Below are positions 22,764 to 56,639 of a stretch of DNA of 64,000 nt, one piece after another. The stretch lies in the IMG/VR virus record IMGVR_UViG_3300042363_000251; one strand, given 5' to 3'. Under the pieces are notes generated by a model, which saw only the letters and a program-made list of their open reading frames with translations, was not told where the DNA came from and ran no database searches. Position numbers and translations under genes: made by a program. The DNA comes from an uncultured virus (IMG/VR IMGVR_UViG_3300042363_000251) (lineage: Duplodnaviria > Heunggongvirae > Uroviricota > Caudoviricetes). The stretch's first letter is position 1, and each line of letters begins with the position of its first letter.

Positions 22764-23069
22764 TTACTGTTCGCTTTCTACTTTGATCTGAAGTGGAAAT
22801 CCCTGTGATCTAGCATCAAGAGTTACTTCAATGCCGCGCTGCTCAGCAATTTCATAAGGTAGCACTGCTACTACTGCACTTCCAATCTCATGAATTTTTT
22901 GAGTTATGGTAGACGCAGTATCTGGATTGTAATTAAAATACTCAATAAGTGAAGATATAACAAATTCCATAGATGTTACATTATCATTCATATAAATAAT
23001 TTTAAACAAAGGCGGTTCTTTTAAACTAGTGTTGGGTTTGATTTTACTGTTTATTTCTGCATTTGGCAT
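22764..23069 (-). CDS. clpS: Clp protease adaptor ClpS
   Basis: EPPLFKIIYMNDNVTSMEFV...IHEIG...YEIAE...FPL. Confidence 0.9.
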   Translation of the reverse strand: MPNAEINSKIKPNTSLKEPPLFKIIYMNDNVTSMEFVISSLIEYFNYNPDTASTITQKIHEIGSAVVAVLPYEIAEQRGIEVTLDARSQGFPLQIKVESEQ

Positions 23070-26466: not shown

Positions 26467-26676
26467 TTAGTCTTTTTCTACTTCAAAAAGATGCCCATAA
26501 GTACCAATAAACTCATTAAGCTCCATTATTAGTTTTCTAGGAATGCCTGGACCTTGTTGTATATGGTAAGTGACTAGATGTAACTCTTCATTACGACTTT
26601 TTACTTGTATGACTTCAATAGAGTCACCGTCTTCAAATTGGTGTTTGATACCAACTATATTATCTTTCGTTAGCAC
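26467..26676 (-). CDS. Hypothetical protein
   Basis: 69-aa ORF. Confidence 0.5.
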   Translation of the reverse strand: MLTKDNIVGIKHQFEDGDSIEVIQVKSRNEELHLVTYHIQQGPGIPRKLIMELNEFIGTYGHLFEVEKD

Positions 26677-27016
26677 GATAGTTTCCTTTTTCTGGTATTA
26701 CATGGCGAACTCCGCCGCGAGGATCTTTCATGTCACCATACCGTCTAGGTATTAGATGTACATGTGGATACATAACTGTTTGTCCAGCAGCAGTTCCTAT
26801 ATTCTGTCCTATATTGTATCCGTCGCAATAATCTTCTAAAACCCAACGTTCTCCCCATTCATATGCTTCTTGCCAGCATAAGACTAAGTTATCTACCATA
26901 TTTACTTTTGGTACAAAAAGAAGATGACCTTCTGTTACTGGAAAGCCATCTTTAAACACTACATAATCTTCAGTTTCGTAGACCTTTTCAGTCCACGGTG
27001 TTTCATTTATTTTCAT
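26660..27016 (-). CDS. HIT-family hydrolase
   Basis: AGQTVMYPHVHLIPR; FPVTEGHLLFVPK. Confidence 0.9.
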   Translation of the reverse strand: MKINETPWTEKVYETEDYVVFKDGFPVTEGHLLFVPKVNMVDNLVLCWQEAYEWGERWVLEDYCDGYNIGQNIGTAAGQTVMYPHVHLIPRRYGDMKDPRGGVRHVIPEKGNYRANER

Positions 27017-40795: not shown

Positions 40796-40869
40796 TGTAG
40801 ATACCCAGTATAATGATAGACTAGTTAAGTATACACGGTTATTTAGAAATGTCAATAGATTTGATGAGA

Positions 40870-42189: not shown

Positions 42190-43032
42190 CTATTTATCTA
42201 AAGTAAGCAGTTGTTCAACAGTATACAACTCTACCATATACGGTGAAACATTTTCTAATACACTTGATGGTAAGTCCCCTTTCCTCCTAGAACCTTCTTT
42301 AACTTTAAAGTCACAGTTGTTTACTTGTTTAAATATATCAACCATTTCTCTTACAGTGTGACCGATCCCGTGCCCTAAGCTTTCTACTTTGTTACTAGGA
42401 GTTTCAATAGCTAACTTTAATGCAGTACATATTTCCATAACATGTACATAATCTCTAACCGCTGTACCGTCCCATGATTCTCTATAGTCAGTACCAAAGA
42501 TAGTAAACTCATCAGTGTCTCGTGCTTTCATTAAATTATACATTAAGCCGTCAGGATTAGTTGGCTTGATACCATAATGACTACCGATCACATTATAAAA
42601 TCTAAAAATAGTATAATCCATTGGCTTGTGTACAGTACACATTTCTCTTACACAATCTTCTGCTGCCCGTTTACTAATACCATATGCTGATTCACACCCA
42701 ACCGCTGCTCCAGTAGATGCAAATATAAAGTTGTTAGTTGGTATTTTATTCATTACATTTGTTGTACCATTTAGGTTAGTAAAATAGTACAGCATAGGCA
42801 TTTGTTCACTTTCCCCTACATTAACTAATGCTGCTAAGTGAATAACAGCGTCATATGGTTCAGTTTGATCTGGGATAGTAAACAGTCTAGTAATGTCTAC
42901 TTGATAAAACTTTTTGATAGGTACTTGAGGTTCTTTAACATCTAAACCATGTATTTCATATTCGTTTTCTAATAGTTTGCAAAGATGTGAACCAATATAC
43001 CCTGAGCAACCTGTAATTAAAATCTTTTTCAT
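42190..43032 (-). CDS. galE: NAD-dependent sugar epimerase (GalE-like)
   Basis: GCSGYIGSH, HLAA..VGES, YGISK, RFYNVIG, DGTAVRDYVHV. Confidence 0.85.
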   Translation of the reverse strand: MKKILITGCSGYIGSHLCKLLENEYEIHGLDVKEPQVPIKKFYQVDITRLFTIPDQTEPYDAVIHLAALVNVGESEQMPMLYYFTNLNGTTNVMNKIPTNNFIFASTGAAVGCESAYGISKRAAEDCVREMCTVHKPMDYTIFRFYNVIGSHYGIKPTNPDGLMYNLMKARDTDEFTIFGTDYRESWDGTAVRDYVHVMEICTALKLAIETPSNKVESLGHGIGHTVREMVDIFKQVNNCDFKVKEGSRRKGDLPSSVLENVSPYMVELYTVEQLLTLDK

Positions 43033-44384
43033 TATAATCCTTCAAATAATGCATTTGGTGTATCATCTGTTGGTACAAAAGTTAAATCTTTTGTTAACCA
43101 TGTATCTTGATCTGTATATATTACTCTAAACTTGTGTTTATTAGATAATACGCTTTCAAAGTCCTCTCTTGCTATTTGTGTTCTGTTGAGGTCTTTTATA
43201 TAGTCTTTGTAATTTACGGTTTCGTAAGTGTTTATCTTAGCTGTATTAGTTTTTGCTTGTTTAGCTTTAAAGTCAACTAACAACTGTTCCCAGCCTTCTG
43301 CAACTTGATCATCTAACGATCTGACGTAATCCAAAGCTTCAGGAAGTTGATTAATACCAGCTAACGCCAAGATATATTCATGTGCTTGTGATAAACTTGT
43401 TTTATGATAGAATTTGCTATCAAAGTTATCTGACCAATCTTGAGTATCTAGAACTACGCAAGGCATGTGTCCTAAACATTCTAAAAAGGCAAACGGATAG
43501 TTTTCTCTTAAACTAGGCATGAAAAATATTTTAGAACTTTTAATAAAGTCTACTTTTTCACTACCCACTATACCTGCTTTTATTTGATAGTCTGTTATAC
43601 CTGCTTCTTTAAAAGCTTTTTCAAACTTTTTAGCACCGTTGGAATTAGTCATTACTTTGCAGGGTAACTTACACTCTTTCATCACTTTAATATATGCTTC
43701 AGGGTTTTTACCTTCTTCCCATCTGCCGATAAACAACACACCCGATTTAGTTCCTGCATAGGGTTCTAGTAATTGTCTTTCGCTCATTGGCATTTTTAAC
43801 AGCTTACAATTAGTAGAACCATGTTTGGTTAATTCGTTGATATTTTTTTGACTTTGTGTTCCTATAATAATATCACTAAACTCCATGTGCTTGTTATAGA
43901 AGTTGTGATAACTTGATAGAAAAACATCACTACCTTGTGTTTCTCTAAAGATCATACTGTGTAAATGAGTATAGAACACGATTGGTATGTAGCTGTTTAG
44001 AGTCATTGCATAAGCAGCAGACATTGCTTCCTGTGTGTTACATATTAGCATATCATAAATGTTTGTTTCAAACCCGATAATAATAGATTTGCGAAAGTTT
44101 ACTATCTTTTCAAAGTTAATAGTATCACTAAATGCAAATGTATTAGTATGGTCAGTGTATCTAAGGTTGTCTGAAGGATAAACAATGTTTGCACCTAATG
44201 ACTGCAACAGTTCACTAAACTCGTTAGTAGGTTTTTTATCTACGATGATATCAACTTTCCATTGTAGTCTTGCACACATTTCAGTAAAACCTTTAGCAAA
44301 CTGGCCTATCCCGCCGTGAGGGATAAGATGCTGGTCGCTTATTAAAAATCCAATTCTTTTGTTATATGTTTTTATGTTCCCCAC
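43032..44384 (-). CDS. GT-B (GT4-like) glycosyltransferase
   Basis: HGGIGQF, FIGRWEEGKNP, PSLRENYPFAFLE. Confidence 0.75.
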   Translation of the reverse strand: MGNIKTYNKRIGFLISDQHLIPHGGIGQFAKGFTEMCARLQWKVDIIVDKKPTNEFSELLQSLGANIVYPSDNLRYTDHTNTFAFSDTINFEKIVNFRKSIIIGFETNIYDMLICNTQEAMSAAYAMTLNSYIPIVFYTHLHSMIFRETQGSDVFLSSYHNFYNKHMEFSDIIIGTQSQKNINELTKHGSTNCKLLKMPMSERQLLEPYAGTKSGVLFIGRWEEGKNPEAYIKVMKECKLPCKVMTNSNGAKKFEKAFKEAGITDYQIKAGIVGSEKVDFIKSSKIFFMPSLRENYPFAFLECLGHMPCVVLDTQDWSDNFDSKFYHKTSLSQAHEYILALAGINQLPEALDYVRSLDDQVAEGWEQLLVDFKAKQAKTNTAKINTYETVNYKDYIKDLNRTQIAREDFESVLSNKHKFRVIYTDQDTWLTKDLTFVPTDDTPNALFEGL

Positions 44385-45217
44385 CTATTCCCAAAAAGCG
44401 GGATATGAAGTCTATCGCTGTATCTTAATCCATGTTTCATAGCTAGTTCAGCTACCCGTTGATTGTTTAACCTATATACGCTTTCTACGCCACCGATTGG
44501 CATCAAGTAAACAGGACCTTTGAACCCTTCTTTTCTATACAATTCAGTTACTTCTATAGCTTCCATAGCATCTTCATCGGTTGCTATAACAAACTTTAAG
44601 TAAGTGTATCCTGCATTTTGATAATCTACAACGATTTCGGGAATAATAGCATCTTCACGTTTTTCACCTGAACAACTTAATTTAGGACTTACTGAAAATG
44701 TGATTTCTCTATCCCAATGCTGAGCCGCCCACTCATTCCTTAAGTAATGTCTAAACTCTTTAAACAATGGTTGTGTGCCATTAGTTTCAAACGTAATCTC
44801 TTTTAATGATTGCATCTTTGGATGATTTAATAAGTCAGGATAAGATCGTTGCCACCCTAACAAAGGTTCACCACCAGTAATAACCAAATGTTCGTCACGC
44901 CATTCTTTAAATGGCAACAGATTAACTATTGCTTCAGCAATCGCATCAGTAGTAAGTTTAGGGGATAAGTGTTTAAAGTTTACATCCCAGCTTGCGTAAC
45001 TGTCACAACCAGTCGTAACTAATGGCAAGTCATTATAGTTTTTATAGCTTTTAGGATGAATTAGATTTCTTTCGTTACTGATTTCACCTTTAGGCATACC
45101 AAATCCTGAACAAGTGAAGTTGCAACCAAATGTTCGTAAGAATACACTTGGTACACCAGTATATCTGCCTTCTCCTTGTACTGAATAAAATAGTTCGCTG
45201 ATCTTTATATTAGACAT
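44372..45217 (-). CDS. queE: 7-carboxy-7-deazaguanine synthase (radical SAM)
   Basis: ELFYSVQGEG..GVPSVFLRTFGC, ITGGEP, ETNGT, SVSPK, RLH. Confidence 0.9.
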   Translation of the reverse strand: MSNIKISELFYSVQGEGRYTGVPSVFLRTFGCNFTCSGFGMPKGEISNERNLIHPKSYKNYNDLPLVTTGCDSYASWDVNFKHLSPKLTTDAIAEAIVNLLPFKEWRDEHLVITGGEPLLGWQRSYPDLLNHPKMQSLKEITFETNGTQPLFKEFRHYLRNEWAAQHWDREITFSVSPKLSCSGEKREDAIIPEIVVDYQNAGYTYLKFVIATDEDAMEAIEVTELYRKEGFKGPVYLMPIGGVESVYRLNNQRVAELAMKHGLRYSDRLHIPLFGNRWGT

Positions 45218-45412
45218 TTGTATCTCGTTTAGTTTTCAGGGTCGGGTTCTCTACCGGTCTGCATGATAACTGACTATCACACAAACCGTATCTAGTAGTT
45301 TCTGTTATTATCTCATAACCGTTGTAAATTACAACCTTTTCGGTAGTTTCTGTTTCTAAAAACTTTTTAAAAGAACCAAGTGTGTCCCATTTTAACTTTT
45401 TGGGTACATACA

Positions 45413-45961
45413 TTACTTCCACCAGTTTTCCCAAGAAAACTCTATCCAAGAATCTTCTTCAGCTTTGTTAATAGACAAAGAAGTATAGGCTATATCTTTA
45501 AAGTCGCTGGCTTCATTGTTTATCAATGTAGCAAACTTTACATTATGATTCCATACTGTATCCCAGGCATACCTTTCATTTGGCATACATGACGATTCCC
45601 AGTCTTTCTTAATCCATTTGATAGTTTCACCCGTATCATTGATATCATCTACAATCAAGATATTCTTTCTACGTGATACGTCCCAACGTGACTTTTCAGT
45701 TTGTCTTATTTCAGTTGACAAGTAGCCAAAAGCATGTTCAGGCATCCAAGCATTACACTCTTGTTGCGCATGGTCTCTTAAACTAACTCGCAATGTTTCC
45801 ATTGGCACATTATAATACTGACTGATTAAAAGTGCAGGAAGTAAACCACCTCGCGTAATACCCACAACGTAGTCAGGTTTATATCCAGACAAAGTTATTT
45901 GTCTGATGATATCCATAGTCATTTTTTGTACATCTGAGTTTGATAACGTTACTGTGTTCAT
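45413..45961 (-). CDS. Type I purine phosphoribosyltransferase (Gpt/Hpt-like)
   Basis: VVGITRGGL, ILIVDDINDTGET PRPP-binding loop, WIEFSWE. Confidence 0.85.
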   Translation of the reverse strand: MNTVTLSNSDVQKMTMDIIRQITLSGYKPDYVVGITRGGLLPALLISQYYNVPMETLRVSLRDHAQQECNAWMPEHAFGYLSTEIRQTEKSRWDVSRRKNILIVDDINDTGETIKWIKKDWESSCMPNERYAWDTVWNHNVKFATLINNEASDFKDIAYTSLSINKAEEDSWIEFSWENWWK

Positions 45962-45962
45962 A

Positions 45963-46427
45963 TTATCCTTCATAAATTGCTGAGTTAGCATCATGTTCAA
46001 ATACTTCTACGCTTTTAACAGATACTGTTTTGTTTAATAATGTGCCTGCTTTTTGGCTTTCGTCTAAAATTTGCGTCATTTTCTTAAAAGCCATTTCAGC
46101 AAATCGTTCACATCCAACTGCTGGAACAATTCGCAAATCAGCTACATGTGTGGGCAAATTCTTTAACTGTTCAAGTTCGGGATCATCTTCAGCTACTAAC
46201 AAAGTATGATCAAACATGTGTTCTAGCCACTGTTTAAATTCTTTAAGCCCGCCAAAATCCATGACCCAGTTTCTTTCATCCAAGCTTTCACATTCAAAGA
46301 TGATTTTAACACCTATTGAATAGCCATGAAGTAGCGAACAATGACTATGAGTAGAACGCCACTGTCTAAAGCAACAGCTTAGTCCCCTGTCATTACCATA
46401 TGTTTTTGTACTATAAAACTTACCCAT
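45963..46427 (-). CDS. queD: 6-carboxytetrahydropterin synthase
   Basis: HCSLLHGY, WVMDFG, FDH, CE, VFE. Confidence 0.85.
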   Translation of the reverse strand: MGKFYSTKTYGNDRGLSCCFRQWRSTHSHCSLLHGYSIGVKIIFECESLDERNWVMDFGGLKEFKQWLEHMFDHTLLVAEDDPELEQLKNLPTHVADLRIVPAVGCERFAEMAFKKMTQILDESQKAGTLLNKTVSVKSVEVFEHDANSAIYEG

Positions 46428-46884
46428 TCTTTCTCTCCGATTCTGTTACTCGTTTACGTAAACTACTAGAGCTAAAACTATGATTTCTTTTATTATAAAT
46501 GATTTCTATGTCAATTGCAAGACAATATTCTTTACCAGTGAAATCTTTGTCCATGTACTCTGCTCCCAATATACGAACATCTACTGGAAGTATTTTTAGT
46601 AAATCAAGCAAGTCTTGTTCAGTTTGGTATACCACAACTTCATCTACAAACCTACATGAACTTAATTGTATCTGTCGTTCAACGATACTTTGTACTGGTT
46701 TGTTTTTGGTGTCAGGTCTATCTATAGTTGGATCAGTTTGTAATCCAGCGATCAGGTAGTCGCAGTGATTTTTAGCTTCAGCTAACATTGCTATGTGTCC
46801 GGCATGAAGAAGGTCAAAAGCAGAAAATACTATGCCTATCTTTTTTCCTTCTTCTTTTAATTGTCTAATTACATTAAAGATCAT
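46420..46884 (-). CDS. TagD/RfaE-like cytidylyltransferase
   Basis: FDLLHAGH (HxGH), KPVQSIVER, SSSSLR. Confidence 0.85.
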   Translation of the reverse strand: MIFNVIRQLKEEGKKIGIVFSAFDLLHAGHIAMLAEAKNHCDYLIAGLQTDPTIDRPDTKNKPVQSIVERQIQLSSCRFVDEVVVYQTEQDLLDLLKILPVDVRILGAEYMDKDFTGKEYCLAIDIEIIYNKRNHSFSSSSLRKRVTESERKNG

Positions 46885-47567
46885 TTCTGAGGTTTTCCCA
46901 TTCGTGCAATGCTTAGAAACTCTGCTCTTGCTGCTGGATCAGTTTTGAAACCTCCACCTAATTTACAAGTTACTGTGCTTGACCCAGTGTCTTCAACACC
47001 GCGGCTCTTAACACAATAATGCTGTGCATCTATCATAACAGCAACATGTTCAGTTTCTAAAATATAGGAAAGTGCATGGAATACTTGTTCAGTCAGTCTT
47101 TCTTGGATCTGAGGACGCTTACTGAAATACTCAACAATCCGATTGATCTTTGAAAGACCCAGAACCTTTTCCTGGGGTACGTATGCTACAGTAGCAAGAC
47201 CATCAATGATTACAAAGTGATGTTCACAATTAGATTGTACGTTTACGTTGCGTTCAACGACCATTTCGTCATAGCCCATTTTGTTTGCAACAGTAGTACA
47301 TTTTGGGAATGCATCATAGTCTAGACCCCAAAAGATTTCATTAACATACATCTTAGCAACACGCTTGGGCGTTTCTATAAGACTGTCATCAGATAAATTT
47401 AACCCGAGGGCTTGCATAATATCGGTAAACTTAGCTTCAATGATTTCAATTTTGTCTGTGCGACTTAGATTGTTTTCAACTTGAGGAGTTTCAACTCCCA
47501 TTTTGACTAGATATTTGTGTATCTTTTGACCCAACTCTGGATCACATTTTACTTTATTAAATGACAT
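46881..47567 (-). CDS. folE: GTP cyclohydrolase I
   Basis: ETPKRVAKM, CEHH, GLSKINR, RPQIQERL, HYCVKSRG. Confidence 0.95.
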   Translation of the reverse strand: MSFNKVKCDPELGQKIHKYLVKMGVETPQVENNLSRTDKIEIIEAKFTDIMQALGLNLSDDSLIETPKRVAKMYVNEIFWGLDYDAFPKCTTVANKMGYDEMVVERNVNVQSNCEHHFVIIDGLATVAYVPQEKVLGLSKINRIVEYFSKRPQIQERLTEQVFHALSYILETEHVAVMIDAQHYCVKSRGVEDTGSSTVTCKLGGGFKTDPAARAEFLSIARMGKPQK

Positions 47568-47647
47568 TTATATTCTCCTTTTGAAAGCATCTAACGTTAA
47601 TGCTCAACGACCTTTCGGTATTTGCTACCTTTGTGTAGCAAAGATAT

Positions 47648-48751
47648 TTATCTCTTGTCAAGAAACACCGAATTAAATTGTTTGTTCACTCTAACAAATG
47701 TTGTACACTTTGACAAGTCTTTTAGGCTCGTTGCACCAACATAAGTACAAGTACTGCGAACCCCACCTAAGATATCTTGTACTGTTTTAGCTACTGGACC
47801 TTTGTATGGAACCTTAACAGTCCTACCTTCTGAACTACGATATTCTGCTACCCCGCCATGATGTTTAGTCATAGCAGTATCGGAACTCATACCATAAAAC
47901 TGAACAAACTGCTTCTTTTCTTCAAGCTTTCCCAAACGATTACCGGTTTCAGGGTCAAAGATTATTTGATTGGTTTCGTATACTTCTTCAATTATTTCTC
48001 CGCCACCTTCTGTGTGACCAGCAAGCATACCGCCTAGCATTACAAAATCTGCGCCACCGCCGAATGCTTTTGCTATATCACCAGGACAAGTACAACCACC
48101 ATCAGCAATGATATGACCGCCCAAACCGTGTGCTGCGTCCGCGCATTCAATAATGGCTGATAGTTGAGGATACCCAACACCTGTTTGAATACGAGTAGTG
48201 CAAACACTACCAGGACCAATACCCACTTTAACAATGTCTGCTCCACGTAAAATTAACTCCTGTGTCATATCTGCGGTAACTACATTACCTGCAATAATAG
48301 TTTTAGTTGGACATAATTTTCTAACTTTAGCAACAAACTCACCAAAGTGTTCTGAATATCCGTTAGCTATATCAATACAAATAAACTGTATCATGTCAGG
48401 ATACTTATAAAGAATACTTTGTAACTTTGTAAAGTCACGATCACTAGTACCAGTACTGATAGCAGTATTGTAAGAAAAGAATTTTGAAAAATTATCTTCC
48501 AAATCTTCTAAAGAATAACTTTTAACTAAGCAAGTAATCATATTATATCCAGCAAGCGCAACTGCTATGTCAAAAGTACCAACACCATCCATGTTTGCAG
48601 CTAGGATAGGCACACCAGTCCAATTTGCGTTACTGTGCTTGAACTGATAAGTTCTTTCCAAACTTACTTCTTTTCTGCTAGACAGTGTTGATCTTTTTGG
48701 ACGGATTAGAACATCACTGAAATCTAGTTTTACTTCATTTTCAATACGCAT
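47648..48751 (-). CDS. guaC: GMP reductase
   Basis: [43 protein letters not shown]. Confidence 0.95.
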
Positions 48752-48752
48752 A

Positions 48753-49952
48753 TTAGTACTTGTTTTCCTTTGTGTGTTTTCTATAATCTGTAGACATACG
48801 TAACCATTGCTCGCCTTTGCCTTCTATGATGTCACAAATTCTATCAACAGTTTTGTCTGTCCAATCACTGATTTTGCCCATGTTTTTATGAGGTTTATCC
48901 AACAAAGATTCTAGTTTGCTGATCATATCTTCTATAGACCAGGGCACATACATTCTTTCATGATCGTTAGCAAATACTTCAGGGAAAGAACGATACGCAG
49001 GGAATAAGACATTACATCCTAGTGCGTCAGCTTCACTTACAGTATTACTAGTCCAATCTTGTAGTGCAGTATTAACTAAAACTCTAGAGTCTGTGAGTAA
49101 ACGATAGTACTCATTTTTAGACAAGTTTTCATAAATCGTAAGCAACTTTTCTTCTTGCATAGCTCTAGCCATATCAACAAATTCTTGTTTGTTACTACGC
49201 AACGTTGAGCCTGTAAATATAGAAAATTCTATTTCACCAAACATTTCTTTGGGATATTTAGCATACCATTCTTTGATTAACTGAAGATAAAAGTCTGGAT
49301 TCTTTTCTTGATCCCAACGTGAAGAAAAGCATACGCGCATTTTGCGTTTATTGAATAAGATTAGGTTATGATCTACACGTTCTCTAACTTCTTGCTTATT
49401 AAATGCTAAACCAGATACGTTGTAAATGTTTGCAGTCCATCCTGCTACTTTCATGTGTGCTACCATTTCTTCGTTTGATGCTAATACAGCACCTTTAGAA
49501 ATAGAAACAATAGTGTTGACCATTTGTTCGTATTCGCTCATCCACTTTTGCATACCCCAAACATGAACAAAGTCATCTGGATCAATAGTTTGTGCTAAAC
49601 AGCGAACAAAGATACGAGGTCTTAGATTTTCTGGCACTTGAGTGATAATATATCCCAAGCTTTCAAAACCGGGCTGAAACATATCTTCAAAGTAAATTAC
49701 GTCTTCATTTGTTACTTCACCCTGCTGCATCATACGAACCAAGTTCATCATTTGACTCATAGCAAAGTAACTACGTCCGTGTGCATCTAAAACTTGACCT
49801 ACTACAATTTGGTTAGAGTCATCAAGAGTTTCGCCCGGAACATAAACTACTTTCATCCTTCTATGATCAAATACTCGCTTGTTCCATTCAGTTAATTGAA
49901 GTGTGTACCTTGCTTCGTAACTTTCAAGCCCCATGTAAAACAGTTTTTGCAT
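48753..49952 (-). CDS. GT-B glycosyltransferase-like protein
   Basis: [27 protein letters not shown]. Confidence 0.65.
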
Positions 49953-49970
49953 TCTATCCTCTTTATTAGT

Positions 49971-50000
49971 AAAGAATGGGCTTGAAAGCCCATTCTTTTT
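49971..50000. terminator. Bidirectional Rho-independent terminator
   Basis: AAAGAATGGGCT-TGAA-AGCCCATTCTTT. Confidence 0.75.
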
Positions 50001-50005
50001 AGATT

Positions 50006-50233
50006 TTATCGTGATCCCGAAAGTCTTTCAAGTTGCTGAGCCCACTGATCTTTTACTTCCTTGCCAGTTAGTAGCTTGCCGTATTGACGCCAGACATAGC
50101 TACGATTGCTGTACAAGTCAGCTTCATCAAACCGGTACCCATACTCTCTACAGAAATTTCTATATTTATCCAAATCATCAAAAACTTTCTGAGTACGCGG
50201 ATTAGGTTTAATATTGTTAGTTGAACGTGACAT
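50006..50233 (-). CDS. Hypothetical protein
   Basis: 75-aa ORF. Confidence 0.6.
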   Translation of the reverse strand: MSRSTNNIKPNPRTQKVFDDLDKYRNFCREYGYRFDEADLYSNRSYVWRQYGKLLTGKEVKDQWAQQLERLSGSR

Positions 50234-50303
50234 AAATAAAATTACTCCAATAAGTAATTAAGGTTAAAGTTAAGTTGTTTGAGAAAATTTTATACACTTA
50301 TTC

Positions 50304-50747
50304 TCATCGTGTTAAGCAATTATATTCTATTTCACAACCGTTTTCATTATCTTCGGCAACAGAGATTACTATTTTTCTCCCAGAATAACGAGTTGCAATT
50401 ACTTCGTACAAATCATCAGCAATCATTTCGCAACTTTTATGATTAAGTTCCAAAACACTATTCTTATACTGATTTTCTAACCAGCGTTTGAATTGGATAA
50501 ATTCAATATCTCGGTCATTATGGAAAACTTGAATAGCTACCTTAAAGTAGAAAATATGTCTATGAGGCCAACCTAAAAAGCTAACATCATACTCATCTTT
50601 AGTTTTTAGATTAGGATCAGTGCTAGCATCAGGATAACAATGAATACCTTCCTTTTGAAAAGTTACCCAAATCATACGAGTAGCCTTATTTTTGATTTGA
50701 TTTCTTTGTTCTATCATAGCTATTTCTCTTTGATTAACTGCACTCAT
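50304..50747 (-). CDS. Second QueD-like T-fold protein (candidate DpdL-type CDG decarboxylase)
   Basis: EGIH, HRHIF, RDIEF, SCEMIA, EDNENG. Confidence 0.55.
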   Translation of the reverse strand: MSAVNQREIAMIEQRNQIKNKATRMIWVTFQKEGIHCYPDASTDPNLKTKDEYDVSFLGWPHRHIFYFKVAIQVFHNDRDIEFIQFKRWLENQYKNSVLELNHKSCEMIADDLYEVIATRYSGRKIVISVAEDNENGCEIEYNCLTR

Positions 50748-50953
50748 CTATCATCACCGTAATCCAATCGTTCATGAGTTTCTTCCCATTCTTCTTTTAT
50801 AAGTCTAGACAGTTCCAAAGAGTACTCATTTTTTTGCTTTTGCATTTCAACAAGTTTTTGTTTATTGTAATTCTCGTCTTTCATAGCTGCTTGTATCAGA
50901 GTAGTAAGACGGTTAATATTTTCTCGCACAAACTGAATTCTACTTTTATTCAT
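50744..50953 (-). CDS. Small coiled-coil protein
   Basis: 69-aa ORF. Confidence 0.5.
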   Translation of the reverse strand: MNKSRIQFVRENINRLTTLIQAAMKDENYNKQKLVEMQKQKNEYSLELSRLIKEEWEETHERLDYGDDR

Positions 50954-50966
50954 ATCTTTTCTCTTG

Positions 50967-52523
50967 TTAACTAATACTAAATAAATCAGGATTACCCCAC
51001 TGCGGTAATACTTTCTTTTCTAACTTATCTATTACCATTTTATCATGAAGGTCATCACCCTCAAAATTATCCGTAAGTGTAGTCATGTTGTTTACTGCTT
51101 TCTTACCAGAAAAGCCCTGACTTCCTGACTGCATTTGCATCCAAAACTTGTTATACTGTTCAATAGTATCTAAACTTTCTTGTCTAGTTTTTTTACTAAA
51201 GATTTCATCTACGATGTCATTAAAGTGTTTGGGTTCAAACTTGTTCATAATCATTTTTGGCATAATGCCCTGCTCGTACCTACGATTAGCTTCTTGAACA
51301 GCATAGATGTGTTGATACACATTATGGGCTTGAACTAGTGTATAACTCAAAGTATCCCAACTTGTTTTAGTTTCTTTACCATGCTGTCCCAAAAAGCCAT
51401 GACCCCTATAACACAAGTCCTTAATAAGCATTTTATCAGTTACAGGAGAATCAGTAAATATTTTATGGATGCCGTCAGCTAAAACTGCGTCACTAAACTT
51501 TCTATTATCTGTATCATAGTTTTTATTTTCAGCAGTTTTTTCCATTGAATAGGACCATTTCTTATCATGTTCAATAGAATTATTAAAGTAAACCAAACCT
51601 TTTGCTGCTGCGAAAAACGGGCTAGCACAGTCAAATGTAATTTGCAAGTTTGGATTGTGATACTTTCTAACTGCACGTTGAATGTCAGTAAACAGAACCG
51701 CATACTCTAAGATACTAGTACCCAAACAGTGAATAAGATCGTGTTTACCTGTTTCTAGTAATCCATCGTAAATCATGTTTACTATACGTTTGAGCATCAA
51801 GTGAATGTCAATTTTATTCTGACCACCAAACGCCCAACCGTTAAAGTGATTAGTTGGATATACTTTTGGATCACAGTACTTTTTCATTTCAGCATACCAT
51901 TCATCACTTTGAGTATGAGTTAATCCTTGAAGTACGTTTAATAACTTACATTCGCCTGTTCTGTTATTGATAAAATACTCATTGTTGATATGAGTAGCTG
52001 CAACAGCTTGTTCTATTGTAGAAATACCGTGCTTGTCAAGTAAGTGTTTGTTTCTAAGAGTTTGAGTAGGAACGTCAAGACACATACCATAGTCCATATA
52101 AGTATCCATCCATTTTAGTACTAGTTGACGCTGCTTCATAGCTTTAGGACAGTTAGGATCTTTCCAATCAGCTGGCCATTGCCCCTTCATAATCTGAAAT
52201 CCACCTGAGTCGCCTAACATGAAAGTACCCTTTTCACGCTTTCTGATAATTGACTCACTTGGATCATCTTTAGTAATGTCTAGATTAGCGTGACCTGCAG
52301 AATACAAGCCCCATTTGTACTTGTACAAACCCTGAGTAGAGTTCAAGAAGTTAAGTGGTTCTACGTCACCATTAAACCCTTGAGGAATTCTAGCAGCATC
52401 AAAGTACTGCTCACCTTCTCGTTGTTTGCCTAATCCTGCGATAAAGAATGAAGACACTGCCGGTAAGAACAGTGCCCATTCTGGATTGTGTGCGTTAGTA
52501 AGATTATGCTGGATCTGATCCAT
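50967..52523 (-). CDS. dpdA: TGT-family DNA deazaguanine transglycosylase (DpdA-like)
   Basis: DSGGFQ, LDVP, VLQG, GWAFGG, HCLG, FDCASP, HN; genomic context with folE/queD/queE. Confidence 0.8.
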   Translation of the reverse strand: MDQIQHNLTNAHNPEWALFLPAVSSFFIAGLGKQREGEQYFDAARIPQGFNGDVEPLNFLNSTQGLYKYKWGLYSAGHANLDITKDDPSESIIRKREKGTFMLGDSGGFQIMKGQWPADWKDPNCPKAMKQRQLVLKWMDTYMDYGMCLDVPTQTLRNKHLLDKHGISTIEQAVAATHINNEYFINNRTGECKLLNVLQGLTHTQSDEWYAEMKKYCDPKVYPTNHFNGWAFGGQNKIDIHLMLKRIVNMIYDGLLETGKHDLIHCLGTSILEYAVLFTDIQRAVRKYHNPNLQITFDCASPFFAAAKGLVYFNNSIEHDKKWSYSMEKTAENKNYDTDNRKFSDAVLADGIHKIFTDSPVTDKMLIKDLCYRGHGFLGQHGKETKTSWDTLSYTLVQAHNVYQHIYAVQEANRRYEQGIMPKMIMNKFEPKHFNDIVDEIFSKKTRQESLDTIEQYNKFWMQMQSGSQGFSGKKAVNNMTTLTDNFEGDDLHDKMVIDKLEKKVLPQWGNPDLFSIS

Positions 52524-52859
52524 TATTGTCCTTTAGTAGTATTTTTACTATCTGTATCTTTTCTTCAATATCAGCTTTTTGTTTTAAAAGATCAGCAAAA
52601 GTGGGATTGTCTTTTAATTTTTCTATTGCTTTTTCTTCTGCCATTTTTTACTGGCCCAGTCCATAATCATTCGTGTGTTATAGTCAATATCTATATTAAC
52701 TGTAGATGATATTTTATACCAAGACGAACCATCGTAAACTTCCATATCTGTCCCGTTATATCTAACCATGCCAGCACTATGATTATTCAAACTTACATAC
52801 GGGCCTGAAGAGCCGCCAGTACTTAATAATCCCAAACCTGTTGCTATCTTTGTAATCAT
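52504..52859 (-). CDS. Hypothetical protein apparently split by a frameshift at an A6 run
   Basis: Frame stops at 52623; the -1 frame continues MAEEKAIEKLKDNPTFADLL...DPA* to 52504. Confidence 0.5.
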
Positions 52860-53590
52860 TTTGACATTGCAGGAAGAATGTAAGAGTACACAGCTAAGCC
52901 TGAATCTACTGTGATTTCAGCAGCACCCTGATCAGAGATTTTAACTGTTTTATCGCCGGGCAAGTCCATGATAGAAAGAAACACTTTTACAGGCCATTGC
53001 CAAGCTTTGGTCATAGTACCAGTTACACCTGCATGAAACACAAAGTTACCTGAGTGAGTAGAAGGATCACCAAAATAAATTTTCAAGTTTCCGCTTTCTG
53101 TTTTAGTTGAAAACGTTACTTCTTCACTGTTAGCAGAAGCTTGCATTTTCAAACGCATAATACCAGCTACTGTGGGTTCAAATTCTACGTTCCAAGCTGC
53201 ACCCTTAAATGTAACAGTTTTTACTTTGCTTTCTACAATTTCTTTAGACATAAGTCTGTAATCATTTACAAAGTCGTTATTCTTTGTAGCAAAGTGAATA
53301 GTAGTAGGAACGTCTTCACTATCTCTTGTTTCTCTAACAACACTGATAGAAGCATTTTCGTCATACTCAGCTTCAAAACCTAAAATAGTTTTAAGCTTGC
53401 CTAGATTGGGCATACCAAAAGTACCAATAGCATCAGCGATTGGATGCTTAAAAGTGCCACTGATAATAACGGTCTTATCTTCTGCCATTGCTTCGATCTT
53501 AGTAACTTGATCAGTGCCTGTTACTTTTACTAACTCCACTACTCCCAAGCCATGTGTATGCTGGATCAAATCTTGTAAAAAATCTTTCAT
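52856..53590 (-). CDS. Putative sliding clamp (gp45-like)
   Basis: 244 aa, two-repeat beta-rich pattern, directly downstream of PolB; both sigma70 and TAAATA promoters upstream. Confidence 0.6.
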   Translation of the reverse strand: MKDFLQDLIQHTHGLGVVELVKVTGTDQVTKIEAMAEDKTVIISGTFKHPIADAIGTFGMPNLGKLKTILGFEAEYDENASISVVRETRDSEDVPTTIHFATKNNDFVNDYRLMSKEIVESKVKTVTFKGAAWNVEFEPTVAGIMRLKMQASANSEEVTFSTKTESGNLKIYFGDPSTHSGNFVFHAGVTGTMTKAWQWPVKVFLSIMDLPGDKTVKISDQGAAEITVDSGLAVYSYILPAMSK

Positions 53591-53671
53591 TTTATTTCCT
53601 CTTGTATGAAATTATTTAGGTATTTCTATTATGTATAATATAGGATTTTATTGCGTTTGTCAACTGTTCGT

Positions 53672-56374
53672 TCAACCAAAAGAAAACAAACTATCAAATG
53701 TAGTATTTGTGTCTGTGTTACTTTTCAAGTCCCAGTTTAGTACACCTAATAGGTTTTCAATCTTTTTATCTACTAGTGTAGTTTCCATTAATGAGTCATC
53801 AAACGGTAATTGTTTGAACCAATCTGGAAGTCTAAGCTCATCTGTAGGATAAGCAATGGAAGTGAATCCTAACGGATTGGTTTTAAGCTTACACACAACA
53901 ACTTTCATACCATCTAAAATAGTCATAGAATAATTGTCGCTATGTGCCTTTTTAAGAAAGTTCCAATTGATAGCTGCACGAACATGCCCCGGCATAGTAG
54001 CCTTACCTTTTTTACTTCTAGCTTCTAGTTCGCCGTAAAAAGTAAGCTTGTTTACTGACTTAGGAGAACCCTTAGTCCAACTAGGCTGTTCGGATAGTTC
54101 TCGCTTAAAATCTTTGATACGTTCTATAATATCTTCTTTGGACTTATTGCTTAGAACCATAGTAAGAACGTCTAGTAAAAACTTTTGAATATATTTAGGC
54201 GTATCTGATCTTTTTAGTTCAAGACCCATAGCTTTAATATCACCCGTTTTACCATTTACGTCTTTACGCTTGCCTTCTTTGTCATAGATATTTACCGCAT
54301 AACGCTTTTTCTTGATAAACAAGCCCACGTCACCTATGATTTCTCTGCCACCTTTAATGATAGCACCGTTCTTTCTTGGACAATGACATGCACGTTCCAT
54401 GAACCCGGGAAAGCTATCGTTAACTTGATCAGCAATATTATCATATAATTGGACAACTAGTTCTTTGTTCCATTCCATCTTACCTGCGTTAACTTCTTGC
54501 TCAATAATAGGCCAAGCTGAAAAATAACCTGAGTCGGTATCAGAGTATATCATAGATTCGCCTTCATGATTGTAAGCACCTGTTATAATCTCATTGATCT
54601 GAGAATTCATGTGCTTAACAATTTGTCTACCAGTTAAAGTAACTGACTGACCCAATCGTTTGTCATAGAACCTACAGTGTTCATTTAAGAGTGCACCATA
54701 AGCAGAGTTAAGCAAAATCTTTCTTACCAACTGTCGCTTGTCATAATACTCTTTATCTGTTTCAGTAGTAGCTTCTTTTAGTTTTTTCTGCAAGTCTTTA
54801 CGTTCAGCATACCAACGAGTAAGTAGACCGGGAATAACACCTTCTTGATCACTTCTAAATATAGTACCATTAGCTGATAACATATACGGACTGTGTGAAT
54901 CAAAAATCATTTTCCATATTTCAGCAGCAGACATTTCTTGTGATCTACCATCTTCAAAGTCAACAATAAGCATTGTGCCGCGTTCTTGATTCATTACTGA
55001 AGTATATTCTAGTGAACCAAACAATCCTTCCCAAAGCAATGAACTCATGTCAAGTTCATCATCTTCGTCATAGTTTCGCTTTTCTTTAGCTAGTTCCATT
55101 GCTCTATCGTGTAAGAACTTTTCAGTATGTGTTTGTCTAATTTGCCCTACAATTGTTTCTGGGGCCATGTTCAAAGCACGAATTGTTGAAGGATACAGTG
55201 AGTTAATATCTATAGCTCCCACCCAGTAATGCAATCCTTTCTTTGGTTGGGCAACATAAGCACCAGCAGCAGCCATTTCGCCTGAATGACCTCTTTGCTT
55301 ATCTGGCACGATAAGACCTCTAGCATGTGCTTCATTATAGATAGCCATTTCAATCATAGCTACTGAACCCATTACTGTTGGTAACAATACTGTATTTTCG
55401 TGTGCTAGTTGATTAGCCAACTCTAAGAATTTTAGCTTGTTGTGAATCTTTACTACAAGCATAGTGTCTTGGCGGTTATATCTAATGAATTCTTTGAAGT
55501 CACGATTGTATAGTTGATCTAGTGTGCCTTCATATGGAGTTTTTGTTTCACCAACTTCCATTTCCCCGATAGCATCTAACGAGTAACTGTGTCTGGATTC
55601 ATAGTTGTACTTTTTATACAACTGAAGATAGTCCATATGAATTCTACCTACTAAGTCATATGTTTGTTCTTCTTTACCAAATCGTTCGTAAGTTCTTGGT
55701 TTAGGTAATTGCCCCATTAAACAGAACTTTCTAGTATCATCTTTACTCATGATCTTAGTTACTCTGTTTACTATATATGGAATATCAAATCCTTCTGAGT
55801 TCCATCCTGTTAACACATCAGCATCTTCAATTATTTGAAAGAAAGTTTCAAACATTTCTATTTCACTACGAAACAAAAAAGTGTTTGGAAATTCTGCTAC
55901 TAGCTCTTGTGCTGTTTCGTCTGTTATGTGTTTAGGTGGAATAGCCAAACATATAAGTTGATCTAACCAATCCAAGTACAATGCAATTGCTGTCACTGGA
56001 CTAAAAGGATCACTAGTAGGCGCGTATCCGCGTTCTGGGGAAAAATCAACCTCAATGTCAAAAAACGCTGTGTGAAGTTTTGGAGCTTCTACACCTAAAT
56101 AGTTGTCAGATAAACATCTAAAAACAGTGTTAACATCGCTTTCAAATAACTTCTTACCCGAGTGTATACGCTTTTCTTTTTCAAATTCGCTTTTCTTTCT
56201 AGTAGAAAACCTACTTAAAGAGTCACGATAGATAGAACGATACTTGCCTTTAGAGTCGGGATAATAAAATACATAGTTAGCAGGGAACTCCTGATAGCTT
56301 CTAGTGCCATCAGAAGTTCTTTCTATCACATGTATGCGATCATTTTTTGCATCATTGATTGCATCAACATACAT
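53672..56374 (-). CDS. Family B DNA polymerase
   Basis: Exo DIE/NSEGFD/YNRQD; DINSLYPS, KILLNSAYG, YSDTDS, KKRYA; C-terminal clamp-binding-like TFDSLF. Confidence 0.97.
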   Translation of the reverse strand: MYVDAINDAKNDRIHVIERTSDGTRSYQEFPANYVFYYPDSKGKYRSIYRDSLSRFSTRKKSEFEKEKRIHSGKKLFESDVNTVFRCLSDNYLGVEAPKLHTAFFDIEVDFSPERGYAPTSDPFSPVTAIALYLDWLDQLICLAIPPKHITDETAQELVAEFPNTFLFRSEIEMFETFFQIIEDADVLTGWNSEGFDIPYIVNRVTKIMSKDDTRKFCLMGQLPKPRTYERFGKEEQTYDLVGRIHMDYLQLYKKYNYESRHSYSLDAIGEMEVGETKTPYEGTLDQLYNRDFKEFIRYNRQDTMLVVKIHNKLKFLELANQLAHENTVLLPTVMGSVAMIEMAIYNEAHARGLIVPDKQRGHSGEMAAAGAYVAQPKKGLHYWVGAIDINSLYPSTIRALNMAPETIVGQIRQTHTEKFLHDRAMELAKEKRNYDEDDELDMSSLLWEGLFGSLEYTSVMNQERGTMLIVDFEDGRSQEMSAAEIWKMIFDSHSPYMLSANGTIFRSDQEGVIPGLLTRWYAERKDLQKKLKEATTETDKEYYDKRQLVRKILLNSAYGALLNEHCRFYDKRLGQSVTLTGRQIVKHMNSQINEIITGAYNHEGESMIYSDTDSGYFSAWPIIEQEVNAGKMEWNKELVVQLYDNIADQVNDSFPGFMERACHCPRKNGAIIKGGREIIGDVGLFIKKKRYAVNIYDKEGKRKDVNGKTGDIKAMGLELKRSDTPKYIQKFLLDVLTMVLSNKSKEDIIERIKDFKRELSEQPSWTKGSPKSVNKLTFYGELEARSKKGKATMPGHVRAAINWNFLKKAHSDNYSMTILDGMKVVVCKLKTNPLGFTSIAYPTDELRLPDWFKQLPFDDSLMETTLVDKKIENLLGVLNWDLKSNTDTNTTFDSLFSFG

Positions 56375-56375
56375 A

Positions 56376-56639
56376 TTACTGGACCCTGCCAACAGTCTCC
56401 AGAATCGTGTTTAAATCTTCATGATCTTGATTAGTTTGTGTAAGTGATGACTTGTATGCAGTCTTTACTGCCCGTTTTAGTACGGATGGCTTGATATCTA
56501 GCTCTTCTGCAATAGCTTTTATCGTATCCGATAATCCGCCGTTAAGCGTTTCTATCTCATTTAATACTGAAAGACCCTCATTTATAATCTGGGTCAATTT
56601 AGTTTTTTCGTCTTGATTAAATACTCTACCGTTTGACAT
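56376..56639 (-). CDS. T4 DsbA/GapR-like dsDNA-binding protein
   Basis: 87-aa helical protein, IKAIAEELDIKPSVLKRAVKTAYK. Confidence 0.55.
   Translation of the reverse strand: MSNGRVFNQDEKTKLTQIINEGLSVLNEIETLNGGLSDTIKAIAEELDIKPSVLKRAVKTAYKSSLTQTNQDHEDLNTILETVGRVQ

Follow-up and report, generated by a model that had tools for sequence, protein, structure and literature searches.

A Probable DpdA3/DpdL-Type 7-Deazaguanine DNA-Modification Locus with Companion Phosphoribosyltransferase and Glycosyltransferase Genes in a T4-Like Cyanophage-Type Genome

7-Deazaguanine DNA modifications shield phages from restriction and from Cas9 and are themselves the targets of dedicated host nucleases and glycosylases. 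In phage phiST, which carries the transglycosylase DpdA3 together with DpdL, no deoxyguanosine (dG) was detectable and 302,000 7-deaza-2'-deoxyguanosines (dDG) were counted per 10^6 nucleotides, according to the passages on its DNA in Cui et al. (2023; PMC10516641). The passages of that paper on DpdL define this protein by the signature LxxxHRHxF and propose it as the decarboxylase that converts 7-carboxy-7-deazaguanine (CDG) to 7-deazaguanine (DG), while those on nucleoside content report complete replacement of G for the phiST, CP220-type, and immuto_2-6A groups, the CP220 case through a citation of Crippen (2019). Protein QCG76197.1 of the Pseudomonas jumbo phage PA5oct is listed as a DpdA3, together with FolE, QueD, QueE, and DpdL, in Supplementary Data S1 of the same paper, as is the same gene set in about 20 uncultured phages, RHph_I1_18, and Ahp1 (Cui et al., 2023; PMC10516641). 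The sections of a 2025 preprint that deal with PA5oct report that its DNA withstands five restriction enzymes, the pattern indicating a modified G, and that the phage is restricted by nucleases that sense modified G. Here we describe a related locus at positions 42190 to 52523 of a 64,000-nucleotide stretch of DNA (the window) from the uncultured virus of IMG/VR record IMGVR_UViG_3300042363_000251. The window corresponds to bases 362-64361 of that record, which has 266,967 bp, is estimated to be 76% complete, and is referred to as G000 below.

We consider it probable, with moderate confidence, that this locus is a DpdA3/DpdL-type 7-deazaguanine DNA-modification module with salvage and glycosyltransferase steps, set in the replication block of a T4-like cyanomyovirus. 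A deazapurine DNA-modification locus had been proposed here in an initial annotation made from the sequence alone, and this proposal is supported by the gene homologies, by the fold of a protein of 518 residues (518 aa), and by the link to PA5oct. Judging from homology, FolE, QueD, and QueE would convert GTP to CDG, the DpdL homolog would convert CDG to DG, and the DpdA3-family enzyme would exchange guanine in DNA for the deazaguanine base, thereby freeing guanine. The purine phosphoribosyltransferase (PRTase) may convert the freed guanine to GMP, feeding GTP back to FolE; under full replacement, the excised guanine would equal the entire G content of the progeny DNA. GuaC, a GMP reductase, may shunt surplus GMP through IMP to adenine nucleotides, for a genome whose G+C content is 36%. 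With lower confidence, the GT-B glycosyltransferase (GT) beside DpdL might decorate the deazaguanine with a sugar or sugar-like group, prior to its insertion or afterwards, and a second glycosyltransferase (GT450), a GalE-like epimerase, and a cytidylyltransferase-like enzyme might support this sugar step, with the variable sugar genes of relatives diversifying the decoration. The core gene set appears to be that of the already known DpdA3/DpdL system, and the companion GT with its changeable sugar genes, as well as the PRTase, would be the features of a variant.

The DpdA3/DpdL-Type Core of the Locus

The 518-aa protein is a candidate DpdA3-family DNA guanine transglycosylase, judging from its sequence relatives and its modeled fold. 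It gave no match to a tRNA-guanine transglycosylase (TGT) or DpdA family in Pfam, NCBIfam, or PADLOC, its sole library match being a weak one to a PADLOC 2TM effector (E 0.003), and PF01702 matched neither this protein at E 0.01 nor anything in the whole genome at E 1. In a control at E 0.1, the DpdA3 proteins of phiST and immuto, QCG76197 of PA5oct, and a TGT-annotated protein of Xanthomonas phage X1 (queuine tRNA-ribosyltransferase) were also without a match; therefore, PF01702 does not separate members from non-members. The AlphaFold model (pLDDT 84.6, pTM 0.85) retrieved nothing other than tRNA-guanine transglycosylases in its top 50 Foldseek matches (E about 1e-7, probability 1.00), and VIA-align superposed it on 2ash, 1p0e, 7nq4, and 1iq8 with a Z of 18.9, aligning 297-314 residues at an rmsd of 4.5-4.9 within model residues 12-427. 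The conclusion that no DpdA is present, drawn from the missing PF01702, PADLOC, and NCBIfam matches, was rejected on the TGT result of the fold search. Invariant in 24 family sequences are D105-S-G-G..Q110, NVLQG at 196-200, and F297-D298..P302-F303, and D105 and D298 would be the counterparts of the catalytic Asp residues that Zymomonas TGT has in its DSGGFQ-type and FDC-type motifs.

The 518-aa protein is 34% identical to EST35_0316 of PA5oct, i.e., QCG76197.1 (E 5e-65; hmmsearch E 2e-129), and the idea that its family is a new DpdA subfamily was dropped since this homolog is already listed as DpdA3. It is through the PA5oct intermediate and the fold that the DpdA3 label is assigned, since the 518-aa protein shows no significant direct match to phiST DpdA3. 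The family profile had no match to PDB sequences at E 10, and hhalign against phiST DpdA3, the 511-aa and 416-aa proteins of Synechococcus phage BUCT-ZZ01, and the TGT-annotated protein of X1 gave probabilities of 0.3-1.7, with short motif coincidences only. The 416-aa hypothetical protein of BUCT-ZZ01 (L014:12278-13528) is encoded between the GT and DpdL, and its ADSGGLQ aligns with DSGGFQ at an insignificant probability; it is probably the DpdA of BUCT-ZZ01.

The DpdL homolog carries L58-GWP-H62-R-H64-I-F66 (LGWPHRHIF), in agreement with the published signature, and is 32.5% identical to CGPG_00067 of phiST (tblastn, E 2e-11) and 59% identical to the QCG76199-equivalent of PA5oct. It co-occurs with the DpdA-like protein, FolE, QueD, and QueE. 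As the initial annotation had stated, the window lacks queC, queF, and gat-queC: no QueC, QueF, or Gat-QueC match was found among the 84 window open reading frames (ORFs) scanned. Among the CDG enzymes, QueD scores below the TIGR03367 cut-off (44.6 bits vs. 89.25). The QueE-like protein is 47% identical to QueE of BUCT-ZZ01 and 34-37% identical to those of Vibrio phages KVP40, nt-1, and VH7D; it matches the NCBIfam QueE models at E 2e-15 to 1e-9, all under their cut-offs, and also misses the Pfam radical SAM cut-off.

About 190 kb from the cluster (G000:C1:239415-240110; L012:10547-11242:+), the genome encodes a PP-loop protein that is QueC-like but divergent. It has an SGGLDS PP-loop and a C-terminal Cys cluster, and its gene sits between an HNH gene and tail genes. 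The possibility of a queC elsewhere in the genome, raised in the initial annotation, is thus borne out as far as a QueC-like gene goes, but this gene was not found in five cluster-bearing relatives, one of them 100% complete. It is not counted in the module because of this absence, and was rejected as a pathway member.

The arrangement of the locus was compared with that of IMG/VR relatives, which number at least 599 for GT399 (the 399-aa GT beside DpdL) and at least 583 for the 518-aa protein, the comparison taking in the best 80 for each. The DpdA3/DpdL form, which is able to replace every G, is abundant in T4-like cyanophage-type contigs, with at least 583 IMG/VR stretches encoding a relative of the DpdA-like protein. 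The order PolB, clamp-like protein, DpdA-like protein, DpdL, GT, and FolE recurs in dozens of IMG/VR contigs, with DpdA-like identities of 37-100%, so the gene arrangement is not by chance. PolB lies upstream of the cluster in 69/80 related loci and anchors the conserved synteny, while the clamp-like protein is found in 70/80 and a 75-aa basic protein has a tblastn match in 76/80. Sixty-eight loci have the 518-aa gene with at least 10 kb downstream (tblastn E 1e-5; loci not de-duplicated). DpdL and FolE are present in all 68 of these, followed by the 75-aa protein (67), the clamp-like protein (65), GT399 and PolB (64 each), QueD (61), QueE and the epimerase (50 each), the cytidylyltransferase-like nucleotidyltransferase (NTase; 41), PRTase (34), GT450 (29), and GuaC (21). 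A further set, retrieved via the 518-aa protein alone and therefore unbiased for the GT, comprises 77 unique loci; DpdL is present in all 45 of those with at least 4 kb downstream and in all 32 with at least 6 kb, and GT399 in 40 and 28, respectively.

Gene-order maps show a fixed head (PolB, clamp-like protein, DpdA3, DpdL, 75-aa protein, and GT399) followed by a variable tail. Beyond FolE, QueD, and QueE, the tail in relatives includes DegT-type aminotransferases, extra SDR enzymes, a GT2-like protein, a HIT protein, a B12-radical SAM enzyme, an HhH-GPD protein, and homing endonucleases. The HIT-family protein encoded elsewhere in the window is 49-58% identical to cluster family c6, whose members in relatives have QueD on one side and the epimerase or QueE on the other.

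In the window, all genes from 42190 to 56392 are on the minus strand (Table 1). They are transcribed in the order PolB, the 244-aa clamp-like protein, the 78-aa protein, the 518-aa protein, the 69-aa protein, the 147-aa DpdL homolog, the 75-aa protein, GT399, GuaC, FolE, NTase, QueD, PRTase, the 79-aa protein, QueE, GT450, and the GalE-like epimerase. Every gene named in the initial annotation was recovered in its place on this strand by Pfam, NCBIfam, PHROG, and fold searches; two GT-B glycosyltransferases, the cytidylyltransferase-like enzyme, and the GalE-like epimerase of the same interval had been left out of it. Its mention of a clamp gene beside the locus stands in that the 244-aa protein is encoded there, the identity as a clamp coming only from protein-atlas leads. 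The atlas neighbors bear the names PCNA-like or sliding clamp, and 16% of one of their clusters carries gp45-slide_C, all of which is to be read as leads only; the profile of the 244-aa protein gave nothing significant against PDB sequences, with no match below E 0.034. A megablast search of the interval 42190-52523 against cultured phages gave no DNA-level match.

Table 1. Genes of the deazaguanine locus and its surroundings in the window.
Feature	Position	Strand	Basis or remark
PolB, family B DNA polymerase (T4 gp43-like)	53672..56392	-	PF00136 E 2e-40, PF03104; phrog_262 E 1e-201
244-aa sliding-clamp-like protein	52856..53590	-	phrog_12062 (unknown function); no Pfam match
u78, 78-aa protein	52623..52859	-	No family match; same position in many relatives
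518-aa TGT-fold protein, candidate DpdA3-family DNA guanine transglycosylase	50967..52523	-	Fold and PA5oct homology
u69, 69-aa protein	50744..50953	-	No family match; in a subset of relatives
DpdL homolog, QueD-paralogous T-fold protein, 147 aa	50304..50747	-	Proposed CDG decarboxylase, from homology to phiST DpdL
75-aa basic protein, pI 9.6	50006..50233	-	Between DpdL and GT399; no family match
GT399, GT-B (GT4-like) glycosyltransferase, 399 aa	48753..49952	-	PF00534 E 7e-6, 26.1 bits (cut-off 26.4)
GuaC-type GMP reductase	47648..48751	-	NF003470 559.9 bits (cut-off 397); TIGR01305 536 (cut-off 492)
FolE, GTP cyclohydrolase I	46881..47567	-	PF01227 E 4e-61; NF006824 316.5 bits (cut-off 202)
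NTase, cytidylyltransferase-like nucleotidyltransferase, HxGH motif	46420..46884	-	PF01467 E 7e-12
QueD-family 6-carboxytetrahydropterin synthase	45963..46427	-	PF01242 E 4e-19; phrog_2389 E 9e-40
Type I purine (6-oxopurine-type) PRTase	45413..46000	-	PF00156 46.8 bits (cut-off 26.3)
u79, 79-aa protein	45210..45449	-	No family match; closest relatives only, 4/80 loci
QueE-like radical SAM enzyme (7-carboxy-7-deazaguanine synthase)	44372..45217	-	phrog_2076 E 7e-56
GT450, second GT-B glycosyltransferase, 450 aa	43032..44384	-	PF00534 27.8 bits (cut-off 26.4)
GalE-like SDR epimerase, 280 aa, shorter than GalE	42190..43032	-	PF01370 E 5e-33; TIGR01179 E 2e-47, below cut-off
HIT-family protein	26660..27016	-	PF01230 E 3e-11; homolog inside the cluster in relatives

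Companion Genes: Phosphoribosyltransferase, GMP Reductase, and Sugar Genes

The profile of the PRTase matched, among PDB sequences, the Pyrococcus purine PRTase 1vdm (E 7e-16), then Sulfolobus GpT-2 and GpT-1, and then HGPRTs, while the NCBIfam XPRT and HGPRT equivalog cut-offs were both missed. The motif LIxDDxxDxGxT, which belongs to the phosphoribosyl pyrophosphate (PRPP) site, is invariant in the family. With the window PRTase as the query, the matches in cultured phages were BUCT-ZZ01, the phiST group, and PA5oct (8 records); with the phiST PRTase, there were 34 records, including 15 Campylobacter phages of the Firehammervirus type, 4 Flavobacterium phages of the immuto type, and 5 Cellulophaga phages. 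Each of the three phage groups for which 100% replacement of G was measured thus has PRTase homologs, as have PA5oct and BUCT-ZZ01. In immuto_2-6A, the PRTase is encoded between QueE and FolE, followed by a nucleoside triphosphate (NTP) pyrophosphohydrolase, DpdA, DpdN, a thymidylate-kinase-like protein, and QueF; in CP220, it is one gene away from a radical SAM gene; and in phiST, it adjoins a dNMP-kinase-like gene and ribonucleotide reductase (RNR). These positions inside or beside the deazaguanine genes of phiST, CP220-type phages, immuto_2-6A, PA5oct, and BUCT-ZZ01 support the tie between the PRTase and deazapurine loci that the initial annotation had suspected. The PRTase was detected in 18 of 32 unique loci that extend 12 kb or more downstream, and was not found within 9 kb of DpdL in RHph_I1_18 or Ahp1. 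The main text of Cui et al. (2023; PMC10516641) makes no mention of it, and the only "phosphoribosyl" of the supplement is an HHpred match to PRA-PH. The PRTase, present in every group with measured full replacement, and a GT family found only beside these genes are two companions that this main text passes over.

GuaC is 59.7% identical to Salmonella GuaC and also matches human GMPR1 (E 6e-137), with the GPGSVCTTR active-site loop conserved and one insertion of about 21 aa. Nine of the 32 unique loci that extend 12 kb or more downstream carry it, eight of them together with the PRTase; ten loci have the PRTase alone and 13 have neither (Fisher p 0.044, ignoring relatedness). Where GuaC and GT399 both occur, GuaC follows GT399 at 1.6 kb or less in 24/25 loci. 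In G001, a 374-kb, 100%-complete relative, about 120 kb separate guaC from the cluster, and its neighbor there is a copy of the NTase gene with 76% identity (L174, G001:C1:219333-223415). GuaC is absent from the BUCT-ZZ01 and PA5oct genomes, and none was found in two incomplete relatives or in the 49-kb phiST stretch examined. Because it occurs in 9/32 loci, lies far from the cluster in G001, and is absent from BUCT-ZZ01 and PA5oct, GuaC is, judging from this distribution, an accessory gene rather than a defining part of the module. The co-occurrence of PRTase and guaC with dpdA, which the initial annotation had proposed as a check, is accordingly found in part for the PRTase (18/32) and not strictly for GuaC (9/32). 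GuaC is the weakest link in the argument of that annotation, which had counted a lack of co-segregation with dpdA, together with a queC lying elsewhere, against itself; guaC does not strictly co-segregate, and a QueC-like gene does lie elsewhere in the genome.

The GT399 model (pLDDT 83) has BshA, glycogen synthase, WaaG, PimA, and MshA as its best Foldseek matches in the PDB (E 7e-10 to 1e-8); among BFVD matches, a GT1 of Acidovorax phage ACP17 is at rank 2 and a cyanophage "DNA alpha-GT" only at rank 11, and the GT399 profile found nothing below E 0.038 in PDB sequences. Searched against all cultured phage records at E 1e-5, GT399 matched BUCT-ZZ01, Xanthomonas phage X1, and BUDD only, and DpdL is present in 3/3 of them. 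Weaker GT homologs are directly beside DpdL and a DpdA in PA5oct and ACP17. In the stretch examined of phiST, a phage with plain dDG in its DNA, there is no such gene. GT399 almost always adjoins DpdL/DpdA3, with the variable sugar genes after it. As for these, GT450 is 43% identical to a 447-aa protein of BUCT-ZZ01 that adjoins FolE. The NTase, which falls below the cut-off for RfaE domain II (81.6 bits vs. 181.5), has ethanolamine-phosphate cytidylyltransferase (E 3e-19) and TagD, glycerol-3-phosphate cytidylyltransferase (E 8e-12), as its nearest solved proteins, and the name UDP-glucose/galactose 4-epimerase is borne by the top 33 PDB matches of the epimerase (E 1e-30 to 4e-17) and by nearly all of its best solved relatives. 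Sugar metabolism is also represented in a second region, apart from the cluster, at L007:13209-15262 and L008:10685-18987, with genes for a DegT aminotransferase, an SDR epimerase/dehydratase, a carbamoyltransferase, and GatZ-like, HAD, shikimate-dehydrogenase-like, MobA-like NTP transferase, and kinase-like proteins.

The acceptor of the GT would be deazaguanine, as the free base or in DNA; we infer this because the GT is linked to DpdL/DpdA and because no candidate dCMP/dUMP hydroxymethylase was found by Pfam in the ORFs scanned (266 of the 309 genome ORFs of at least 60 aa), where the sole gene of the thymidylate synthase family is a full-length ThyA match (E 9e-110). The GT next to DpdL/DpdA3, taken together with the variable sugar genes, suggests a sugar-decorated deazaguanine. 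Attachment of the sugar at C7 or N2 of 7-deazaguanine is speculation, as is the corresponding example of a decorated base, C7- or N2-glycosyl-7-deaza-2'-deoxyguanosine made via DpdL, DpdA3, and a GT4-fold transferase. It is a tentative and rather doubtful generalization that this lineage, PA5oct, BUCT-ZZ01, and X1/BUDD all have glycosyl-7-deazaguanine DNA, with the sugar diversified per phage and the PRTase marking a nucleotide-level step. The main text of Cui et al. (2023; PMC10516641) uses neither "glycosyl" nor "sugar", and, judging from titles and the opening parts of abstracts, no glycosylated deazaguanine in phage DNA is described in the papers returned by a literature search. Should the base indeed be the substrate of the GT, phage DNA would gain its first example of a glycosylated purine.

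Weighing of the Proposed Route and Its Alternatives

Several observations weigh against the module as drawn above. Within the CDG genes, the QueD motif is C30-SLL-H34-G-Y36, i.e., HGY stands in place of the HGH of CxxxHGH, and a CxxxCxxC or Cx14CxxC motif was looked for in QueE and not found. The comparison of the 518-aa family with the 259-aa phiST DpdA3 is not significant (hhalign probability 1.7, hmmsearch E 1.1), and the activities of the DpdA3 transglycosylase and the DpdL decarboxylase have not been reconstituted, heterologous tests in E. coli having failed, as stated in the experimental passages of Cui et al. (2023; PMC10516641). On the sugar side, GT399 was not detected by tblastn in 5/45 unbiased loci and is absent within 9 kb of DpdL in phiST, RHph_I1_18, and Ahp1; moreover, 7-deazaguanine is without an obvious hydroxyl for a glycosyltransferase, and the GTs could have another target. 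The fixed place of GuaC after GT399 is not explained by simple purine balancing, and neither is its pairing with the NTase, the two genes appearing to move as a pair. Finally, the PRTase family is phage-specific rather than host-like, and its neighbors in immuto_2-6A and phiST include a (d)NMP kinase and an NTP pyrophosphohydrolase, a context that would fit activation of deazaguanine at least as well as guanine salvage.

This last point leads to a pre-replicative route, in which the PRTase would couple DG or CDG to PRPP to give 7-deaza-GMP, kinases and RNR would carry the product to the dNTP, and PolB would incorporate it, leaving the TGT-fold enzyme a secondary or different role; the published claim that the modification is all post-replicative would need revision if the PRTase does act on deazaguanine. 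A passage of Cui et al. (2023; PMC10516641) cites the finding of the ADG nucleoside in the cytoplasm of infected cells, which would fit such a route. So would the small PRTase family in all three groups with 100% replacement (phiST, CP220-type, and immuto_2-6A), the NTP pyrophosphohydrolase and thymidylate-kinase-like gene of the immuto_2-6A cluster, the dNMP-kinase-like gene and RNR that adjoin the phiST PRTase, and the MazG/dUTPase-like gene in the phiST deazaguanine cluster. The present genome itself encodes a dNMP kinase, RNR, MazG, and a Nudix protein, and the cluster adjoins PolB. However, DpdA3 is in every locus (68/68, by construction of the set) and base exchange alone would suffice, no kinase or dGTP-removing enzyme is in this cluster, and only 18/32 complete unique loci have the PRTase. 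In HGPRT-type enzymes, the Asp of DDxxD acts on the purine N7, an atom without a counterpart in 7-deazaguanine, and the PRTase of the window retains this Asp. The phage-specific PRTase family and the kinase and pyrophosphohydrolase neighbors in other phages favor activation, whereas the conserved DpdA3 and the retained Asp favor guanine salvage; judging from these features, we rank salvage ahead of activation for the PRTase, though not by much, and regard the pre-replicative route as a whole as rather unlikely.

In the Streptomyces toyocamycin and tubercidin pathways (ToyH/ToyE, TubE/TubD), a PRTase and a GMP reductase homolog act on deazaguanine nucleotides, and the enzymes that complete a deazaadenine nucleoside are adenylosuccinate synthetase and lyase, a phosphatase or Nudix enzyme, and a UbiD-type decarboxylase. 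By analogy, the initial annotation had suggested that the PRTase gives a deazaguanine ribonucleotide, GuaC converts it to 7-deaza-IMP, and host PurA/PurB form 7-deaza-AMP, so that the product would be 7-deazaadenine or 7-deazahypoxanthine in DNA, or a nucleoside toxin. Candidates for the early steps (CDG genes, decarboxylase candidate, PRTase, and GMP reductase homolog) are indeed in one cluster, GuaC keeps its place within 1.6 kb of GT399, and eight of the nine GuaC-positive complete loci have the PRTase, at the Fisher p given above, which ignores relatedness. Against this, GuaC is found in only 9/32 unique complete loci and 21/68 loci, is missing from BUCT-ZZ01 and PA5oct, is about 120 kb off in G001, and has the equivalog score and the active-site loop of a canonical GMP reductase. 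The Pfam scan of 266 ORFs brought up neither an adenylosuccinate synthetase nor a lyase, and neither a UbiD-type decarboxylase nor an in-cluster phosphatase, though host enzymes could substitute, and the Nudix gene is about 50 kb from the cluster. No paper that joins 7-deazapurine, phage, GMP reductase, and phosphoribosyltransferase came up in a literature search, and no deazaadenine paper is among the matches listed for phage DNA modification with queE. With GuaC canonical and accessory and PurA/PurB not found among the scanned ORFs, the 7-deaza-IMP/7-deaza-A branch is not upheld as the leading reading, and we consider it very unlikely; the simpler alternative offered in the same annotation, i.e., recycling of guanine excised by DpdA, fits better without being proven. 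Cyanobacteria make glycosylated pterins, and FolE, a PTPS-family protein, two GT4-fold enzymes, a GalE-like epimerase, and a probable cyanobacterial host would all suit the synthesis of a glycosylated pterin with no role for DNA as the target; the tetrahydrobiopterin glucosyltransferase of Synechococcus, 5ze7, is even a fold match of GT399. That match stands at rank 36, however, no better than dozens of generic GT4 enzymes, while the GT is conserved together with a QueE-like radical SAM enzyme, a DpdL-signature protein, and a TGT-fold enzyme, the same module occurs in Pseudomonas, Xanthomonas, and Acidovorax phages, and PA5oct DNA contains modified G according to the preprint sections mentioned above. 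We therefore give hardly any credence to pterin-glycoside synthesis, and the DpdA3/DpdL-type module remains our preferred reading.

Genome Setting and Comparison with Known Systems

The genome is that of a T4-like myovirus, as shown by Pfam matches to gp23, the gp20 portal, a gp15-like protein, baseplate proteins, and a T4-type terminase. Pfam also detected cyanophage-type auxiliary genes (heme oxygenase, ferredoxin-dependent bilin reductase, PhoH, Hsp20, MazG, and 2OG oxygenases), and the host is probably a cyanobacterium, because the genome encodes heme oxygenase and bilin reductase. Other genes of the window encode an Fe/Mn superoxide dismutase (3798-4352), a ferritin-like protein (58137-58580), an S-adenosylmethionine decarboxylase (17362-17733), and a UvdE UV endonuclease (39776-40855). 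The proteostasis set is unusually full for a phage, with ClpP (18822-19409), ClpS (22764-23069), Hsp20 (23128-23583), and ClpX (23685-24896) in the window and a ClpB/ClpA-like double-AAA protein (L003:1227-3506), DnaJ (3524-4315), and GroES (8366-8653) just outside it. Elsewhere in the genome, one minus-strand ORF of 18,798 bases, or about 6,265 aa, occupies G000:C1:193140-211937 (locus L010), and a block on the opposite strand at L006:14309-18642 (G000 about 138.4-142.8 kb) encodes a DUF1552 (HXXSHH) protein, a protein with a TonB-dependent-receptor plug domain, and a GT2 glycosyltransferase, which is odd for a phage.

Like the Streptomyces toyocamycin/tubercidin clusters, the window combines CDG genes with a type I PRTase and a GMP reductase homolog. 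It differs from them in having a DNA transglycosylase-type enzyme and GTs, in that GuaC is dispensable across relatives, and in that the 266 ORFs scanned yielded neither an adenylosuccinate synthetase nor a lyase, and neither a UbiD-type decarboxylase nor a phosphatase within the cluster. The glucosylation of hydroxymethylcytosine in T4, which is carried out by alpha- and beta-glucosyltransferases and differs in sugar chemistry among related T-even phages, is a likeness of another kind, since in both cases a T4-like phage has genes for GT-B-fold transferases within its DNA-metabolism region. Unlike T4, no dCMP hydroxymethylase was found here, the acceptor would be deazaguanine or another group, and GT399 resembles GT4 enzymes such as BshA.

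The likeness to phiST lies in FolE, QueD, QueE, a DpdL-signature paralog, and a TGT-related enzyme missed by Pfam, together with a homologous small PRTase in the genome and a cluster near the polymerase. Unlike the window, phiST has a DpdA3 of 259 aa, not significantly alignable directly with the protein of 518 aa here, no GT399-like GT, sugar genes, or GuaC in the stretches examined, and a MazG/dUTPase-like gene within the cluster. BUCT-ZZ01 (Kyanoviridae) lacks GuaC, a nucleotidyltransferase, and an epimerase in its block, and a 416-aa ADSGGLQ protein replaces the 518-aa protein (hhalign probability 1.5). It has, in one block, QueE (47% identity), PRTase (28%), QueD (49%), FolE (57%), a GT450 homolog (43%), DpdL (40%), and a GT399 homolog (58%).

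As for PA5oct, it has no GuaC, and its locus has no second GT, NTase homolog, or full-length GalE-like epimerase, a 172-aa ORF giving weak SDR/GalE-like matches only, while FolE and QueD are encoded elsewhere in the genome. Like the window, however, the PA5oct locus EST35_0311-0322 has PolB, a clamp-like protein (33% identity), and DpdA3 (34%), and its order continues with a GT (22%, E 5e-11), DpdL (59%), PRTase, and QueE.

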